From NCBI GenBank assembly GCA_043719295.1, contig JAYSUD010000005.1:98077-162076 (forward strand): 64,000 nucleotides of DNA, given 5' to 3'. A program made the position numbers and the translations under genes. Below are positions 993 to 55,574 of the stretch, one piece after another. The first letter of the stretch is position 1. Every line of letters begins with the position of its first letter. The notes under the pieces were generated by a model. The model was not told where the DNA came from. It did no database searches and saw nothing but the letters and a program-made list of their open reading frames with translations. Source of the DNA: a bacterium (lineage in GTDB: Bacteria > Patescibacteriota > Minisyncoccia > Phycocordibacterales > UBA918).

Positions 993-1332
993 ACATAATT
1001 ATATTAGCACGGGTTCTAAGACGGGAATCTCTTTCCCTACGGGAATGGTATGCCTTTTGGATGGATTGGTACGCTTCGCTTCCAATCCATCACAAAAGCC
1101 TTTCGAGTCCCTTTTTGGATGTGTCCGACACATCCAAAACTCTCGCTCGTAACATAAAATGGCCGTTGCTGTGGCAACGACCATTTTATTAACTGGTCAC
1201 GAGTTACTAACTATAATTGTTCGCTTCGCTCCAATTCAAGTAAGTACTCTCGACCCCGCCTCGACTGTCGCAAGCGACATGTCTATGGCTCGCAGTTAGG
1301 CACGGAAGCAAAGCAGTTTGCTTCCTAAAAAG

Positions 1333-1366
1333 AAAAACACAGTCTGACGAATGTGTTTTTCTTTTT
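1333..1366. terminator. rho-independent terminator hairpin (AAAAACACA...TGTGTTTTT) downstream of tRNA-Asp
   Basis: perfect 9-bp stem flanked by an A-run and a T-run, 10 nt from the tRNA 3' end. Confidence 0.6.
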
Positions 1367-1375
1367 ACCTAACTG

Positions 1376-1688
1376 CGCGAGAGACGGGACTCGAACCCGC
1401 AACCTCTGCCGTGCACTGAATTCATTATTTTCATAATGGCGTGGACTATATCTTTACCATGAGTCTTTCGACTGTTAGGTACCCCGGTATCTAGTCTCTA
1501 CGGCGCCCCCATACTATGTGTTTTTGTATATGGGGTTCCCTCGGTATTCGCATATCTAGTAGTGCTTATTGGGCACTATTTCAAACGACTTAGCCTTCAC
1601 CGATATCCCGGAGAGTTTCAATCCTAACTTTCGAAAGGAAAGCTGCACGTCTACAGGGCAGCGCTCTAACCAATTGAGCTACTCCCGC
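1376..1688 (-). tRNA. tRNA-Asp(GUC) interrupted by a ~239-nt group I-like intron in the anticodon loop
   Basis: 5' half (1653-1688; acceptor GCGGGAG, D-arm GCTC-AATTGGTTA-GAGC, anticodon stem CTGCC) and 3' half (1376-1413; GGCAG, variable AGGTT, T-arm GCGGG-TTCGAGT-CCCGT, acceptor CTCTCGC, discriminator G) are both canonical; splicing at 35/36 gives loop CTGTCAC and a T-arm identical to bacterial tRNA-Asp; 5' exon ends in U and intron ends in G; alternative junction 33/34 would give UGC. Confidence 0.6.
1414..1652 (-). other. putative group I intron (no internal ORF) inside tRNA-Asp
   Basis: 239-nt intervening sequence between canonical tRNA halves; boundaries U|...G| fit group I rules; size matches known tRNA group I introns. 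Confidence 0.45.
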
Positions 1689-2343
1689 AGTTCTTTATAA
1701 ACTCCTCAAAGACGACTTTTTTACGTCGTAAATGGAGTTTGTGAGGAACAGTATACATGATTTTATAAAGTTTCAAAGCGTCTTTAGTTGAGAGGATGAG
1801 TCGTGAATAATTAGCCATCTTTGGCGTATATATTCCCCCACCAATAATACCTCTTGATTGCAACACCATTCGCAAGGATAACAGATACTCGAGTGAACCC
1901 GAGGTGAATATCGATTGCAGTACTTTTGTTGGACTTTTTCGTTGCCTGTTAATAATTCCACTCCAGACATTACCGTCTCCATCAAAATAACCGCGCACAA
2001 AATCTCCAAAAAAATATTCTGGGACCTGCGGCAATTGCATACGCTTAGTTTTATTTGGGAATAAACCAATCTCACCTAAATCATAGAACCACTCCTTACT
2101 TCCAATTTGAATTCTGTATACACATCCAGTTAAGGACTTACGTCCTGAAAGTTTGTGATCAGACTGAAAACACTTTCTCATTGCAACTAATATATCTTTA
2201 TCTGCTGAATATACTGCGACAAAATGAGTGCCTCGCTTTGATTTGACTATATTCCCATCAGCATACATAAACCCTAAAATATAGGCCATGTCGGAAGACC
2301 AAATTTTAAAGAAATCTTTGTTGTATGTTTTAGATATTGGCAT
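1666..2343 (-). CDS. LAGLIDADG homing endonuclease (two-motif, single-chain)
   Basis: two LAGLIDADG-type motifs (LGFMYADGNI and RGYFDGDGNV); its 3' end overlaps tRNA-Asp exon 1 by 23 nt. Confidence 0.8.
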   Translation of the reverse strand: MPISKTYNKDFFKIWSSDMAYILGFMYADGNIVKSKRGTHFVAVYSADKDILVAMRKCFQSDHKLSGRKSLTGCVYRIQIGSKEWFYDLGEIGLFPNKTKRMQLPQVPEYFFGDFVRGYFDGDGNVWSGIINRQRKSPTKVLQSIFTSGSLEYLLSLRMVLQSRGIIGGGIYTPKMANYSRLILSTKDALKLYKIMYTVPHKLHLRRKKVVFEEFIKNCGSSSIG

Positions 2344-2395
2344 CGTGACAGTATATTATACTATACACAACGTGGCAGTTTTATGCATACTACAT

Positions 2396-3409
2396 TTATC
2401 TTCCTAAATGCTTTAATACTTTAAGATACAAATCCTCGACAATTTTTTCTTGTTCTTTTCCCATTTTTGAATAGTGATCTAAACCAGGCGCGGCATTAAT
2501 TTCAATAATCTTAAAGTTATCAATCTGTTGTTTTGTGATATCACCTTGTACTAAAATATCTACTCCGCATAAACGAAGTCCCATGTCTTTTGTAAGTGTA
2601 ATCGCTATCTTTTTAAATGAACTGTGGAGGGCTTTTGTTACATCAACTGATATGCCTCCGGTTGAAAGGTTTGCATTATCAAGTAAAGATACTGCTGTAC
2701 CTTTGGGTAACACAGAAGACGAGTCAAGCTTTAGTCGCTTAAGTTTTTGCAAAATTCGTGCATCGTTTGTTTTTATAACAGTATTGCGTTCTGCTTTTTC
2801 AAATGCTCTTTGTTTTTTTTCTAAAAGCTCAAAGATAGATGACTTTCCATCACCAACAATTGAAAGCGGAATCCGTCTGTATGCAGAAATAATTTCAGTA
2901 TCAAGAACTACAATCCGATAGTCGTCGCCTTGTATGTATGACTGTACCTGTACGAGATTATCAAAGGTAAAAATTTTAGTCACAGCTCCATAAAATTCTT
3001 TTTTGGTATGCACGAGCGTAACCCCAGAACCCTGACTTCCACTATTGGGTTTTACAATAACCGGAAAGCCAATCTTAACCGCATGCCTATACGCTGCATC
3101 AATATCTTCTTTCGGTGCACCGATAGTAACTCCCCAATGTTTTGAGAAAAATACCTTACTGTTTGGGATAACGGGGTACCCCAATGACTTCATAAAGAAG
3201 GTTGCATAGTCTTTGTCTTTTGCAATATCAGATGCCCCAACTGGATTAAGATCAAGCGTGTTAAAGCGGAAGTAGGAACGCTTTCCATTTTTAAAAGTGA
3301 TCTGTCCCGCAATTCTCCATGTAGGTTCTAAAAGAACCGATGCGCCAATAGAGGGAGCAATTTTTTTGATAATGCTCCCCAAAATAAATGATTCCCGTTT
3401 CTTTTTCAT
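2396..3409 (-). CDS. ATP-grasp ligase (RimK/glutathione-synthetase/cyanophycin-synthetase-like)
   Basis: ATP-grasp signature region (VIVKPNSGSQGSGV, EINAAPG) in a 337-aa ORF. Confidence 0.6.
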   Translation of the reverse strand: MKKKRESFILGSIIKKIAPSIGASVLLEPTWRIAGQITFKNGKRSYFRFNTLDLNPVGASDIAKDKDYATFFMKSLGYPVIPNSKVFFSKHWGVTIGAPKEDIDAAYRHAVKIGFPVIVKPNSGSQGSGVTLVHTKKEFYGAVTKIFTFDNLVQVQSYIQGDDYRIVVLDTEIISAYRRIPLSIVGDGKSSIFELLEKKQRAFEKAERNTVIKTNDARILQKLKRLKLDSSSVLPKGTAVSLLDNANLSTGGISVDVTKALHSSFKKIAITLTKDMGLRLCGVDILVQGDITKQQIDNFKIIEINAAPGLDHYSKMGKEQEKIVEDLYLKVLKHLGR

Positions 3410-3525: not shown

Positions 3526-3526
3526 G

Positions 3527-3599
3527 TGTCGACGACAAGAATTGAACTTGTGACCTTTTCTTTATGAGTGAAATGCTCTACCAACTGAGCTACGCCGAC
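3527..3599 (-). tRNA. tRNA-Met(CAU), elongator-type (could alternatively be a lysidine tRNA-Ile2)
   Basis: hand-folded cloverleaf: acceptor GTCGGCG/CGTCGAC, D-arm GCTC-AGTTGGTA-GAGC, anticodon loop CTCATAA, T-arm ACAAG-TTCAATT-CTTGT, discriminator A. Confidence 0.75.
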
Positions 3600-3600
3600 A

Positions 3601-4272
3601 TTATTTACTTGCTTGTATGAGACCTAAAATTTTGTACCTCAATGTTGTACCACGAGCTACTCGTAATGCCAACACGCCGTAATAGGAATCATGATTTTCA
3701 TATATCTTTTTCGGACGGCCTTTGAGGAAAATAACTTTGTTAAATTGCTCTTTCGGGATTGATAGAAAATTAGACCAGAAAGTCATAATGACGCATTCAC
3801 GAGGTTTATGTATCTCTGATACATAAATATATGGTCGAAAATCAGACCTTTGCACCCCTAGTTGCTCAAACCAATTCCGAGCAAAAAGTATAACTGAAGG
3901 GTCAGAATTAACAAGAGCAGTACCACTCCCTCCTGCTTTAACACCCTCACCCCAGTACAACCCAATACCTAACATCAGTCTGTCACGTTTCGTCATTTTT
4001 CCAATTATAGCCTTTGCTTTATGCTCTTGTTCTAGGATATTTTCAATCTTTTTACGTCTATTTGATTCTGCTCCCATCATTCTACCTCTGTTTCCAGCTT
4101 TAATTTGTTGCAGTGTAAGTATTTCTCTTTGCGAATCAGAAAGCACTAAATCTCTACACCAAATACTCACTGAACTACTGGATACCCTAAGTCTCTTAGC
4201 TATCGCTTTAATACTCAGCCCATCAGTACGTAGATTTCTTGCAAGTAGTTTTTCTACACTTTTAGCCATCAA
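3601..4272 (-). CDS. HTH + degenerate LAGLIDADG-like (LYWGEG) homing-endonuclease-related protein
   Basis: N-terminal HTH (LSIKAIAKRLRVSSSSVSIW); C-terminal GIGLYWGEGvK...TALVNSD...ILFARNWFEQLGV parallels the I-CreI-type LAGLIDADG alpha-beta-beta-alpha core; stop codon abuts the tRNA-Met 5' end with a 1-nt gap; paralog at 46912-47569. Confidence 0.5.
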   Translation of the reverse strand: MMAKSVEKLLARNLRTDGLSIKAIAKRLRVSSSSVSIWCRDLVLSDSQREILTLQQIKAGNRGRMMGAESNRRKKIENILEQEHKAKAIIGKMTKRDRLMLGIGLYWGEGVKAGGSGTALVNSDPSVILFARNWFEQLGVQRSDFRPYIYVSEIHKPRECVIMTFWSNFLSIPKEQFNKVIFLKGRPKKIYENHDSYYGVLALRVARGTTLRYKILGLIQASK

Positions 4273-30762: not shown

Positions 30763-30875
30763 CTTCGAATCCCTCCGCACGTGACATTTAGTCACGTGCT
30801 CATCTTCCGCGAACAAAATATGCGCCCTTGTGGGGCGCTATTTTGAATCGCGGAAGATGAGGGATTCGAACCCTC
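30763..30875. repeat. extended inverted repeat: inverted copy of the 3'-terminal ~25 nt of tRNA-Ser(ACU) (30763-30775 + 30799-30811) facing the tRNA 3' end (30849-30875), with two nested hairpins
   Basis: reverse-complement comparison of the flanks. Confidence 0.7.
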
Positions 30876-30937
30876 GAAGGATTTAACTCCTTGGCAGTTT
30901 AGTAAACTGCTGCTTTCAGCCACTCAGCCAATCTTCC
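30851..30937 (-). tRNA. type II (Ser-like) tRNA with anticodon ACU (loop TTACTAA)
   Basis: 87 nt; acceptor GGAAGAT/ATCTTCC, 3-bp D-stem GCT/AGC, long variable arm (AAGGA-GTTAAA-TCCTT), T-arm GAGGG-TTCGAAT-CCCTC, discriminator G; anticodon stem GCAGT/ACTGC. Confidence 0.65.
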
Positions 30938-46688: not shown

Positions 46689-46762
46689 CCGCCCTTAGCT
46701 CAGTTGGTTAGAGCATGGAGCTTATACCTCCAGGGTCCCACGTTCGAGTCGTGGAGGGCGGA
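46689..46762 (+). tRNA. tRNA-Ile(UAU)
   Basis: acceptor CCGCCCT/AGGGCGG, D-arm GCTC-AGTTGGTTA-GAGC, anticodon stem TGGAG/CTCCA loop CTTATAC, T-arm CCACG-TTCGAGT-CGTGG, discriminator A. Confidence 0.7.
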
Positions 46763-46911
46763 CAAAAATTGAATTCATATACAAAAATGGTCATTGGTTC
46801 GCACCACAAGAGTATTTCCGTTTTCTAATTCCTTTCAGTCATAAAAAAACTAGGTCAGTCCAAGAGGTCAGACACAGTATATCTCTTTTATATTTTGAAA
46901 AAAATCCTAGT

Positions 46912-47569
46912 CTAGGAATAGATACTTCGTAAGTATCGGATGCCTTCTATCACATATTCGTACATATCTCTATCGTGATATGAAACAACGCACGTACCGT
47001 AATTAAACATTCCTTTGTACGTCCTTGCTTCCGCAGAAGTATTTTTTACATACGTTTTATTAAAGTTTTGCATTGGTATACTTAGATGCTTACACCAAAA
47101 TTCTTTAAGCTCATCTTCATTTTGATTAGTATACGTATGTAGTTTAACTTTAAGTTCGTCCCTTAAGACACCCATATTTTCAAGCCACATGACAAAACAT
47201 TTTACAACAGCAGGATCTGAGTTAGTTAATGACGTCGTATATTCGGCTGATTTTGTACCTTCATCCCAATAAAGGTAAAAGCCTGCAATAAATTCAAGAT
47301 TTCTACTACAGGAAATGTCATGTGATACTTTTTTAAATACAACACTCCTCCTATCATCTTTTTTCTTCTGCATAGTCATTCGATATTTCTCAATTCGAAT
47401 CTCAGAATTCGCTCGTAATTCATTAATACGCTTTTTTTGAAAGTGGCATGTCACTTAACCATCCGCTAAGGGTACTTTTACTGATTCCTATTTCGGTTTT
47501 TATTTGAGAATAGCTCATCCCTTTCTTTCTTAAGGTAATTGCTTTTAGTTTATTTTTCGAACGTACCAT
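46912..47569 (-). pseudogene. frameshifted paralog of the HTH + degenerate LAGLIDADG-like protein
   Basis: HTH part (47423-47569) and LYWDEG C-terminal part (46912-47454) overlap by 32 nt in different frames; collinear with the intact 3601-4272 gene. Confidence 0.5.
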
Positions 47570-54887: not shown

Positions 54888-55280
54888 GGGGATGCTAGGC
54901 ATCGACGGTTAGTCCCTGCTGTTGTGTGCAGTGTCAAAAGAGCATGTGGATTTGTAAAAATACATGCAACACTTACGTGCTAAGAATAACGTAGTAAGTC
55001 CATACTTCTCGAAGTTGGATCTCGTACCCGCTCTCGCGTAACCCGCGACGGCCGGTCGACATTGTTTCTCTTGAGGTTTCATAGAGAGAATTGCAGTGTA
55101 ATAAAAATGAAACTTGAAAGTAGTACCCCTTCCTAGTACTACTTAGACCTTCTTAGGAATCGAGAGTGTACGATTTTGTTTATCTTATACGTCCACCCTT
55201 TAAATCAAAAGAAATACTACACACTGTAGACGCGCGATAGCAACCTAATTCGGACGTGGATTCAATTTCCACCATCTCCA
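54888..55280 (+). ncRNA. ssrA: tmRNA (ssrA), one-piece
   Basis: 5' GGGGATGCTAGGCATCGACGG (conserved TCGACGG); 3' tRNA-like end GTGGA-TTCAATT-TCCAC + CATCTCC + A; G3:U70 alanine determinant; candidate tag ORF (A)KNNVVSPYFSKLDLVPALA* at 54979-55041. Confidence 0.8.
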
Positions 55281-55574
55281 CAATTTAAAAATCTGCACAC
55301 ATTTTTCGTGGGCGATTTTTATTTGTGGAGATGGTGAACAGGCAAACTGCTTTGCCTGTGTGAAATTGAATCAAGCGGAAGCATGTTGCCTTGCAACAGC
55401 TGAGCTCGGGGAGGAAGTTCTTAGTAATTTAGGAACGAAGTGAACTTAAGTACTTAGAAACTTGACCCTTCAATTTCCACTATCTCCACCGACACATAAA
55501 ATCACTCAGATCCATGAGTGGTTTTATGTTTTATTTGGCACGGTGACCCACGGAAGTATGTCATACTTATATAT

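Follow-up and report, generated by a model that had tools for sequence, protein, structure and literature searches.

We analysed a 64,000-nt stretch of a patescibacterial contig (GenBank assembly GCA_043719295.1, contig JAYSUD010000005.1, positions 98,077 to 162,076 of the forward strand; hereafter the window), in which a tRNA-Asp(GUC) gene is split by a group I intron and is overlapped at its 5' end by a free-standing gene for a LAGLIDADG-type endonuclease. Positions are given in window coordinates, and every element of the tRNA-Asp/endonuclease locus lies on the minus strand (Table 1). The endonuclease belongs to a family that is widespread and apparently undescribed, and that seems, from the sequence comparisons reported here, to target the tRNA-Asp gene itself.

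The 5' exon of the tRNA gene (GCGGGAGUAGCUCAAUUGGUUAGAGCGCUGCCCUGU, ending in CCUGU) uses 36 nt for tRNA nt 1-35, its D-loop having one extra residue, and its register is 100% conserved when compared with homologues. The 3' exon (CACGGCAGAGGUUGCGGGUUCGAGUCCCGUCUCUCGCG) begins with CACGGCAG and ends with CUCUCGCG. When the two exons were joined in silico at 35/36, a 75-nt cloverleaf with the anticodon GUC and G73 was obtained, which ARAGORN called tRNA-Asp(gtc), and ARAGORN in intron mode found the split gene directly (Asp i(37,239)). Note that, in the scan of the window, the split gene was called neither by default ARAGORN nor by the Rfam tRNA model. The acceptor stem has G3:C70 and G4.U69, the Ala determinant G3:U70 is not present, and position 38 is C; intronless orthologues with identical exons are called tRNA-Asp. 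An initial annotation of this DNA had described two tRNA-Asp halves separated by 239 nt in the anticodon loop, which upon splicing at 35/36 would give the loop CUGUCAC, the T-arm GCGGGTTCGAGTCCCGT and G73, with a U closing the 5' exon and a G closing the intron. Our analysis bears this description out, the two terminal residues being U35 (1653) and G 1414. The split arrangement recurs in dozens of independent genomes and is no chance pattern.

The intron begins with AGACGUGCAGC and ends with CAGUG, the last residue being the terminal (omega) G. A search with the Rfam group I model RF00028, which the initial annotation had recommended, matched 1669..1422 (minus strand) end to end with 51.1 bits (E 4.7e-10 over the window), which is above the gathering score of 50, and, as had also been stated, the intron lacks an open reading frame (ORF), none of 40 aa or more being found on its sense strand. 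We then aligned it with 36 homologous introns from other genomes (37 sequences in total) and tested a manual structure made up of the anticodon stem, P1, P2, P3, P4, P6, P8 and P9, with P7 as a pseudoknot. Standard pairs filled 92.7% of the sequence-by-pair cells, compensatory double changes were found in 36 of the 52 pairs, and the observed values were reached by 0/500 shuffles. As a control, the 3' partners were slid by 1-3 columns, and pairing fell to 37-48%. The compensatory changes were seen for P2, P3, P4, P6, P8 and P9; P7 (GACUA/UAGUC) is invariant, fitting the structure and contributing no covariation evidence. In P1, CUGU(A) pairs with (U)GCAG, that is, C32-U33-G34-U35 with the guide sequence, and both the U35.G wobble at the 5' splice site and the G at the last intron position occur in 37/37 sequences. 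A structure computed by RNAalifold had paired the intron 3' end (P7'/P9 region) with exon 2; it was rejected and replaced by the manual pseudoknot structure. We conclude with high confidence that this is a genuine group I intron at 35/36 of tRNA-Asp, where it is predicted to splice. Group I introns at 35/36 of patescibacterial tRNA genes for Asn and Asp, assigned to subgroup IA, were reported by Nakagawa et al. (bioRxiv July 2025; mSystems January 2026, PMC13011429), who demonstrated, with one Asn and one Asp intron, that self-splicing in vitro is precise and occurs at 35/36; in close relatives of the window intron this restores the anticodon loop CUGUCAC. In addition, a weak Rfam match to CRISPR-DR9 was seen at 1615-1654 (minus strand) in the P1-P2 region (16.8 bits, gathering score 45, E 0.68), which is almost certainly due to chance.

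The endonuclease gene ends in the stop codon TAG at 1668..1666, and tRNA nt 1-23 supply its last 7 codons together with this stop, in agreement with the earlier statement that a LAGLIDADG ORF ends 23 nt (stop included) inside exon 1. The protein contains the motifs LGFMYADGN (with D29) and RGYFDGDGN (with D123), and both Asp residues are invariant in a 27-sequence set and in all 81 copies examined. An AlphaFold2 model (predicted local distance difference test (pLDDT) 89.4, predicted template modelling score (pTM) 0.88) shows two alpha-beta-beta-alpha-beta-beta-alpha halves, with the tRNA-encoded tail (residues 221-225) disordered (pLDDT <50). The top fold matches in the PDB are all LAGLIDADG enzymes, namely I-Tsp061I, E-DreI, I-AniI and the I-OnuI family. 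I-Tsp061I (PDB 2dch) was the best match by profile (E 5e-6) as well as by fold (E 8e-10, template modelling score 0.64-0.70), and shares with the window protein two pseudo-symmetric domains and two catalytic acidic residues; the two are, however, only ~15% identical, and I-Tsp061I is encoded in an archaeal 16S rRNA intron. By its motifs and its modelled fold, the window protein is thus a member of the LAGLIDADG homing endonuclease class. More than 1000 database homologues of 220-225 aa were found, whose C-termini fall into two classes: one (NCG(G/S/R)SS(T/A/I)G) is encoded by tRNA nt 1-23, with the TAG in GGUUAG of the D-loop as its stop, and the other (K(L/M)R(S/A/P)) stops at U8-A9-G10.

Table 1. 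Features of the tRNA-Asp/endonuclease locus and other genes of the window mentioned in the text.
Feature	Position	Strand	Remarks
LAGLIDADG endonuclease gene	2343..1666	-	Free-standing, two-motif, 225 aa; Pfam PF14528 (LAGLIDADG_3), E 8.9e-9
tRNA-Asp(GUC) 5' exon	1688..1653	-	tRNA nt 1-35, 36 nt; from ARAGORN intron mode and the spliced sequence
Group I intron	1652..1414	-	239 nt, ORF-less; RF00028 and covariation in 37 sequences
Guide sequence GCAG	1646..1643	-	G1646 pairs with U35 (1653)
Intron P3	1613..1608 / 1487..1482	-	Manual structure
Intron P4	1603..1599 / 1545..1541	-	Manual structure
Intron P6	1535..1529 / 1513..1507	-	Manual structure
Intron P7	1496..1492 / 1448..1444	-	Manual structure
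Intron P8	1481..1478 / 1458..1455	-	Manual structure
Intron P9	1438..1433 / 1428..1423	-	Manual structure
tRNA-Asp 3' exon	1413..1376	-	tRNA nt 36-73; G73 at 1376; CCA not encoded
Mimic of tRNA-Asp site	2366..2344	-	GTATAG-TATAATAT-A-CTGTCACG, ATG directly after; overlaps endonuclease promoter
Putative homing site, left part	1653..1671	-	GGTTAG-AGCGCTGC-CCTGT; cut off by intron
Putative homing site, right end	1410..1413	-	CACG; moved 239 nt by intron
Inverted repeat	1327..1366	-	Perfect 14-bp A/T-rich repeat with 12-nt loop, AAAAAGAAAAACAC ... GTGTTTTTCTTTTT; directly after tRNA-Asp
ATP-grasp gene	3409..2396	-	Between tRNA-Met and endonuclease gene in the window
tRNA-Met(CAU)	3526..3599	-	Conserved upstream neighbour of the cassette
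tmRNA gene	54888..55283		Present in the window

Relatives of the endonuclease were found in at least 493 species genomes in a scan with one genome per species; all of those looked at bear Patescibacteria-type names, and the nearest relatives come from Kaiserbacteria/Paceibacteria-type metagenome-assembled genomes. For comparison of the loci, we took the 80 best loci and the window (81 copies), of which 78 were readable, 3 contigs ending too early; the tRNAs of 26 loci with unusual D-arms or short contigs were classed by eye together with ARAGORN coordinates. A tRNA-Asp(GUC) gene starts at or inside the end of the ORF in 78/78 readable loci, the ORF usually ending at tRNA nt 10 or 23. On the other hand, an intron of 190-260 nt at 35/36 is present in 45 of the 78 and absent from the remaining 33, and intron-bearing and intronless loci are interleaved when the endonuclease sequences are clustered. 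The combination of intron and external gene had been called unusual in the initial annotation; the external gene does overlap exon 1, but it is no local oddity, being a widespread conserved cassette linked to tRNA-Asp and not to the intron. In an unbiased sample of 120 metagenome contigs drawn by a 3'-exon pattern, the endonuclease was found at 7/9 intron-bearing genes (9/11 when remnants were counted) vs 3/62 intronless genes (p = 3e-6), where the 62 are those with enough upstream sequence. Furthermore, in 57/78 loci the endonuclease gene has a tRNA-Met(CAU) gene of the same orientation no more than 400 nt upstream of it, and tRNA-Met(CAU) is also found upstream of tRNA-Asp in 22 cassette-free loci, with spacers of 4-400 nt.

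Two groups within the locus set deserve description. Eleven loci (L013, L018, L019, L026, L031, L032, L036, L042, L064, L073 and L080) carry an odd T-arm (GTGGGGTCAGCACCCAT) with a T-loop GUCAGCA instead of UUCGAGU and a short D-loop (AACGGTAG), and ARAGORN misses most of these tRNA-Asp genes even in intron mode. The introns of L020, L022, L029 and L037 form a divergent subtype, in which P1 starts with CGAUUGGCAG or AGAAUUGCAG, the P4-P6 sequences differ, and an extra insertion of ~25-35 nt, possibly P7.1/P7.2, lies between P7 and P3'.

Gain and loss of the cassette can be followed in pairs of related loci. L004, which has cassette and intron, and L091, an empty locus on a metagenome contig, are syntenic over ~6 kb at 72-78% identity, with 100% identity in the exons of tRNA-Asp. 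A stretch of 867 nt (promoter and ORF) takes the place, in L004, of the 72-nt tRNA-Met/tRNA-Asp spacer of L091, and a 215-nt intron lies exactly at CCTGT/CACG (the slash marks the insertion point). L008 and L193 show the same occupied and empty pattern. Decay was also observed: a single internal stop is present in 5/81 endonuclease copies, the copies of L082, L134 and L175 are fragmented, only the last ~30 codons remain before an intron-bearing tRNA-Asp gene in L123 and L143, and in L189 the endonuclease gene is cleanly lost and the intron kept, with a 62-nt spacer. As a separate observation, the upstream flanks of two Kaiserbacteria contigs, L001 (1411-1851) and L003 (1-372), are 92-96% identical and the endonuclease/tRNA regions only 75%, with ~1 kb extra in L003 between the flank and the endonuclease/tRNA region; an allele may have been replaced here, or the flank may simply contain conserved RNA genes.

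We next examined the region upstream of the endonuclease start, where a mimic of the tRNA-Asp sequence overlaps the promoter. In the window, this mimic contains the -10-like sequences TATAAT (2360..2355) and TATACT (2355..2350), and a promoter-like match was called at 2378..2350 (minus strand). Most loci carry T-GGTTAG-(tatAATnt)-C-CTGTCAC-G upstream of the endonuclease start, at a fixed distance from it (23 nt for the main class, 5-8 nt for that of the window), and the motif contains or adjoins TATAAT boxes. Its blocks and their 8-nt spacing are those of tRNA-Asp, that is, GGTTAG (D-loop, nt 18-22), 8 variable bases and CCTGTCACG (nt 31-39), and the CCTGTCACG block spans the intron insertion point CCTGT/CACG. 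A relaxed bipartite pattern gave 36 matches in 1.1 Mb of locus sequence, where 0.13 were expected; 35 of them lie within 120 nt upstream of an endonuclease start, 1 lies in tRNA-Asp and none elsewhere. The two blocks are conserved while the intervening 8 nt and the surroundings diverge, across endonucleases that are ~40% identical, and the mimic has decayed where the endonuclease gene has decayed (L123). Because the operator of the endonuclease I-TevI resembles its homing site, we read the promoter motif, by analogy, as a likely copy of the enzyme's recognition site. The corresponding putative site in the tRNA gene, GGTTAG-N8-CCTGT/CACG, spans the point at which the intron is inserted.

If this is the recognition site, immune tRNA-Asp alleles are expected, because a genome that carries the enzyme must not carry an intact site. 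We scored a canonical (loose) site, GGTTAG-N8-CCTGTCACG, and a stricter one, GGTTAGAGC-N5-CCTGTCACG. The canonical site was intact in 52/59 endonuclease-free intronless tRNA-Asp genes and in only 1/33 endonuclease-linked intronless genes (p = 8e-17), and it was intact in 30/42 intron-split genes when these were spliced in silico (p = 4e-10 vs the linked intronless genes). With the stricter site, the counts were 39/59, 0/33 and 29/42, respectively. The variants are of many kinds and include a 1-nt insertion that shifts the block spacing (GGTTAG-T-AGC), GGCTAG, GGTTAA, GGAGTG, CTTGTCACG and TCTGTCACA. Within the endonuclease clade of the window, the site is variant in 7/7 intronless loci and canonical in 6/7 intron-bearing loci, and exon 1 of L001/L003 differs from that of L002/L005 by one inserted T only.

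The reading that we favour, which has strong comparative support and which we regard as probable, is collaborative homing: tRNA-Asp would be the target of the free-standing endonuclease, and either the intron or a mutated site would make an allele immune. The target would be an intact tRNA-Asp gene between the D-loop and the anticodon loop (GGTTAG-N8-CCTGT/CACG, nt ~18-39), and the enzyme would cut tRNA-Asp genes without a cassette, probably near nt 25-30. The break would then be repaired from a copy bearing the cassette, with the conserved tRNA-Met and tRNA-Asp genes as homology arms. In this way the endonuclease gene, which ends within the tRNA ~25 nt from the predicted cut, would be copied in, and the same repair would bring in the donor's uncuttable tRNA allele. 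Immunity could arise by two routes. In the first, the intron would split off the right half-site, leave the mature tRNA unchanged and be mobilised in trans; the intron probably serves, on this sequence evidence, as the tRNA-Asp gene's protection against the neighbouring nuclease. In the second, the site would be mutated by a 1-nt insertion that alters the block spacing, by D-loop substitutions or by C32U. The system would behave like an addiction module, because precise loss of the intron from this essential, single-copy gene would, with the enzyme still active, restore a target whose cutting is lethal, unless the site was mutated. A simpler proposal, with the insertion point of the intron as the target and with the intron obligatory wherever there is a cassette, was ruled out by the 33/78 intronless loci and was replaced by the two routes. 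In a stricter form of collaborative homing, the enzyme would cut any intact tRNA-Asp, and nothing but the intron or, failing that, a mutation distorting the D-arm would protect the gene; a cell with active enzyme would not survive precise loss of the intron, and the enzyme would restrain itself through the promoter mimic. We put this form forward tentatively, as somewhat less likely than not.

Regarding expression, the locus would form one transcription unit consisting of the promoter (~2370..2350), the endonuclease gene, the intron-split tRNA-Asp gene and a terminator-like repeat (~1366..1327). The inverted repeat behind the tRNA gene is likely the terminator of this unit, although a consensus terminator scan did not call it, its G+C content being below the rule of the scan. 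By analogy with I-TevI, the mimic over the gene's own -10 boxes would be an operator, to which the enzyme would bind without cutting and so repress its own transcription; our confidence in this role is lower than in the model of homing and immunity. The stop codon TAG of the endonuclease gene is itself part of the GGTTAG block (1666-1671, minus strand) of the putative recognition site. More speculatively, an RNase P cut at tRNA +1, which lies 20 nt before the stop, would strip the endonuclease message of its stop codon, and tRNA maturation would make it a non-stop mRNA, which might limit the enzyme further. The window does contain a tmRNA gene (54888..55283).

Several points weigh against collaborative homing at tRNA-Asp. 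When cassette and flank identities were compared across species representatives, they were similar, with no clear excess of cassette similarity; recent horizontal transfer is not supported by this comparison, and much of the distribution may be vertical. A recognisable mimic is missing in ~20/79 loci. L049 and L182 are endonuclease-linked and intronless and keep the loose canonical site, and at nt 24 both depart from the AGC seen in alleles that an intron protects. The tRNAs of the intronless loci L019 and L073 are identical or near-identical to those of the intron-bearing loci L042, L064 and L080; all five carry the D-loop variant CGGTAG, which therefore occurs with and without an intron, indicating that the intron is not always needed. 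The endonuclease-free controls were chosen by a T-arm pattern and include other phyla, so that lineage effects inflate the contrast in site frequencies, and the contrast within one clade is smaller in number. Furthermore, the centre of the putative site is ~8 bp from the intron insertion point, which is further than for most intron-encoded LAGLIDADG enzymes, and the site is one that we infer from motif resemblance and allele statistics only.

Among the other explanations, the best is that homing is directed at the spacer between tRNA-Met and tRNA-Asp or at the 5' edge of tRNA-Asp, that insertion of the endonuclease gene destroys this site and so immunises the locus, and that the intron is a co-converted passenger 36 nt away. 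It accords with the cassette always abutting the tRNA 5' end, with the replacement of the whole spacer in L004 vs L091, and with the occurrence of endonuclease-linked alleles both with and without an intron. We nevertheless consider it unlikely, for it leaves unexplained both the depletion of GGTTAG-N8-CCTGTCACG in linked genes (1/33 vs 52/59) and the promoter copy of exactly those two blocks; in addition, the spacers are not conserved between species, and a family that occurs in at least 493 of them would be ill served by such a target.

Slightly less likely still is that the LAGLIDADG protein is a vertically inherited host factor, a maturase or a protein with another tRNA-linked function, which is no longer a mobile nuclease. 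Most copies are indeed intact and are 40-76% identical across many species, cassette divergence resembles flank divergence, and the fold matches include the bifunctional I-AniI and the bI3 maturase. However, in 33/78 loci the tRNA-Asp gene next to it has no intron, neither of the catalytic Asp residues varies, and related introns self-splice without protein (PMC13011429). The empty sites, pseudogenes and remnants indicate that the gene is dispensable and has been gained and lost, and if there were no nuclease pressure, it would be difficult to account for the depletion of the canonical site.

It is similarly doubtful that the adjacency has no function, with the promoter motif being a decaying remnant of a tRNA gene that was duplicated in part and the variant sites merely marking the lineages that carry the cassette. 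Such a motif could stem from a duplication at insertion, and the endonuclease-free controls are phylogenetically broader than the linked set. This explanation is opposed by the conservation of the two blocks against the divergence of the 8 nt between them and of their surroundings (endonucleases ~40% identical), by the decay of the motif along with the endonuclease gene (L123), by the many independent kinds of variants and by the persistence of the contrast within one endonuclease clade.

Lastly, splicing at 33/34, which would make the gene a tRNA-Ala(UGC), is highly improbable: the 33/34 junction does give Ala(UGC), as the initial annotation had cautioned, with U33 before the junction and a G before the alternative 3' junction, ARAGORN accepts the product as Ala and annotation tools call relatives so (Nakagawa et al., PMC13011429), but the guide sequence pairs with U35 as U35.G in 37/37 sequences (U33 pairs with A), the 33/34 intron would end in A in 7 homologues, intronless orthologues are tRNA-Asp, G73 and C38 fit Asp, and the sequenced spliced products of relatives are joined at 35/36 (PMC13011429), so that the ambiguity resolves to Asp by guide pairing and by G3:C70 in place of G3:U70.

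Elsewhere in the window, a second ORF at 3601-4272 (minus strand, 223 aa) ends 1 nt before the tRNA-Met(CAU) gene (3526-3599, minus strand). Pfam places a helix-turn-helix (HTH_23, below cut-off) at its N-terminus, and the ORF also contains a LAGLIDADG-like motif, LGIGLYWGEG. Homologues with 29-46% identity lie 1-57 nt upstream of tRNA-Met in 7/11 other loci and once upstream of tRNA-Trp (L030), and the ORF may represent a second family of endonuclease-like genes attached to tRNA 5' ends. A fragment at 47053-47295 (minus strand), near a tRNA-Ile gene at 46689-46763 (plus strand), is 35% identical to residues 98-180 of this ORF (E 2e-13). ARAGORN assigned the anticodon UAU to this tRNA-Ile, and the anticodon ACU, with A at position 34, to a tRNA-Ser at 30850-30937 (minus strand); tRNA-Ile(UAU) and tRNA-Ser(ACU) are both uncommon in bacteria.

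The work of Nakagawa et al. left two questions, namely why minimal genomes keep tRNA introns and how introns without an endonuclease spread. For tRNA-Asp, the locus suggests one answer, in which the endonuclease gene lies outside the intron and the intron is kept as a shield of an essential gene. If this is true, it would explain why genome-reduced bacteria retain these introns, and it would provide hundreds of natural snapshots of endonuclease genes and introns coming together. The family forms a natural series, from the naive site through cassette with intron, cassette with mutated site and decaying cassette to the orphan intron. In addition, standard tRNA finders overlook tRNA-Asp genes that are split by an intron or have a variant D-arm, and estimates of genome completeness are biased as a result. 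Since its two short, conserved blocks belong to an almost universal tRNA gene, a LAGLIDADG enzyme that reads them may prove toxic to cloning hosts, and may be of interest as a broad-host-range meganuclease; the tRNA-Asp of E. coli appears to carry GGTTAG-N8-CCTGTCACG.

The intron in tRNA-Asp is of an already known class, and the new part is the endonuclease. The introns of Nakagawa et al. and that of the window share the host gene, the insertion site, the phylum-level source and the two-base Asp/Ala annotation ambiguity, which was already noted there (PMC13011429). Specifically, a Paceibacteria tRNA-Asp intron in Table S3 of that work (GCA_023898525.1) has the same P1 (agacgtgcagc) and core (gtagagactagatacc, aaagatatagtcc) as the window intron. 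The complete genomes of that work contain three tRNA-Asp genes with an intron, in GCA_001029755.1 (at 698,633), GCA_023898525.1 (at 845,753) and GCA_030583725.1 (at 182,876). Endonuclease genes were sought there inside introns only, and it was concluded that most tRNA introns are without them and hardly mobile; flanking endonuclease genes are not mentioned (PMC13011429). Unlike in that account, the endonuclease gene of the window sits outside the intron, fused to exon 1. In the literature open to our search we found no free-standing LAGLIDADG gene beside bacterial tRNA genes, though a report may still exist. In three loci of our set, a tRNA-Thr(GGU) gene with a 180-190-nt intron at 36/37 lies just downstream of tRNA-Asp (L010 4879-5144, L012 4800-5055 and L056 889-1153), and these introns are probably the "divergent group I introns" of Nakagawa et al.; L143 may hold a tRNA-Met with a 248-nt intron at 33/34.

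Collaborative or trans homing has been described for F-CphI of cyanophage S-PM2, encoded beside an ORF-less psbA intron, and for T4 mobE and the nrdB intron; in these cases the region cut by the endonuclease is presumed to be that into which the intron is inserted, so that the intron confers immunity and is mobilised in trans (PMC3984707, PMC2988022, PMC2790892). The window likewise has an ORF-less intron and an adjacent free-standing endonuclease gene outside it. The phage systems, however, concern protein-coding genes of phages and Endo VII-like or HNH enzymes, whereas the window system involves a bacterial chromosome, a tRNA gene, a LAGLIDADG enzyme and an ORF that overlaps the exon. It further differs in being present in hundreds of species and in all stages of the life cycle, in its mutational route to immunity, in its promoter mimic and in having a target that we infer here. 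For I-TevI, a sequence overlapping the promoter, with 15/20 positions identical to the homing site, is an autorepression operator (Edgell et al. 2004, as summarised in PMC2988022). The window similarly has a homing-site-like sequence over the endonuclease promoter, with ~15 conserved positions in two blocks at identical spacing; I-TevI, on the other hand, is a GIY-YIG enzyme encoded in a phage intron, whose binding and repression were, according to that summary, shown by experiment, while the window case is a resemblance in sequence. Regarding tRNA genes, I-SspI/I-Ssp6803I is encoded in the cyanobacterial tRNA-fMet intron, and LAGLIDADG genes occur in cyanobacterial tRNA-Arg(CCU) introns (PMC13011429; Bonocora & Shub 2001, as cited in PMC3984707). 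As described in these sources, the systems of this type resemble that of the window, in which the anticodon region of a tRNA gene is the putative target and a group I intron interrupts the site; unlike in the window, their genes lie inside the intron, their enzymes are of the PD-(D/E)XK or PF03161 LAGLIDADG type, and their hosts are other tRNAs.

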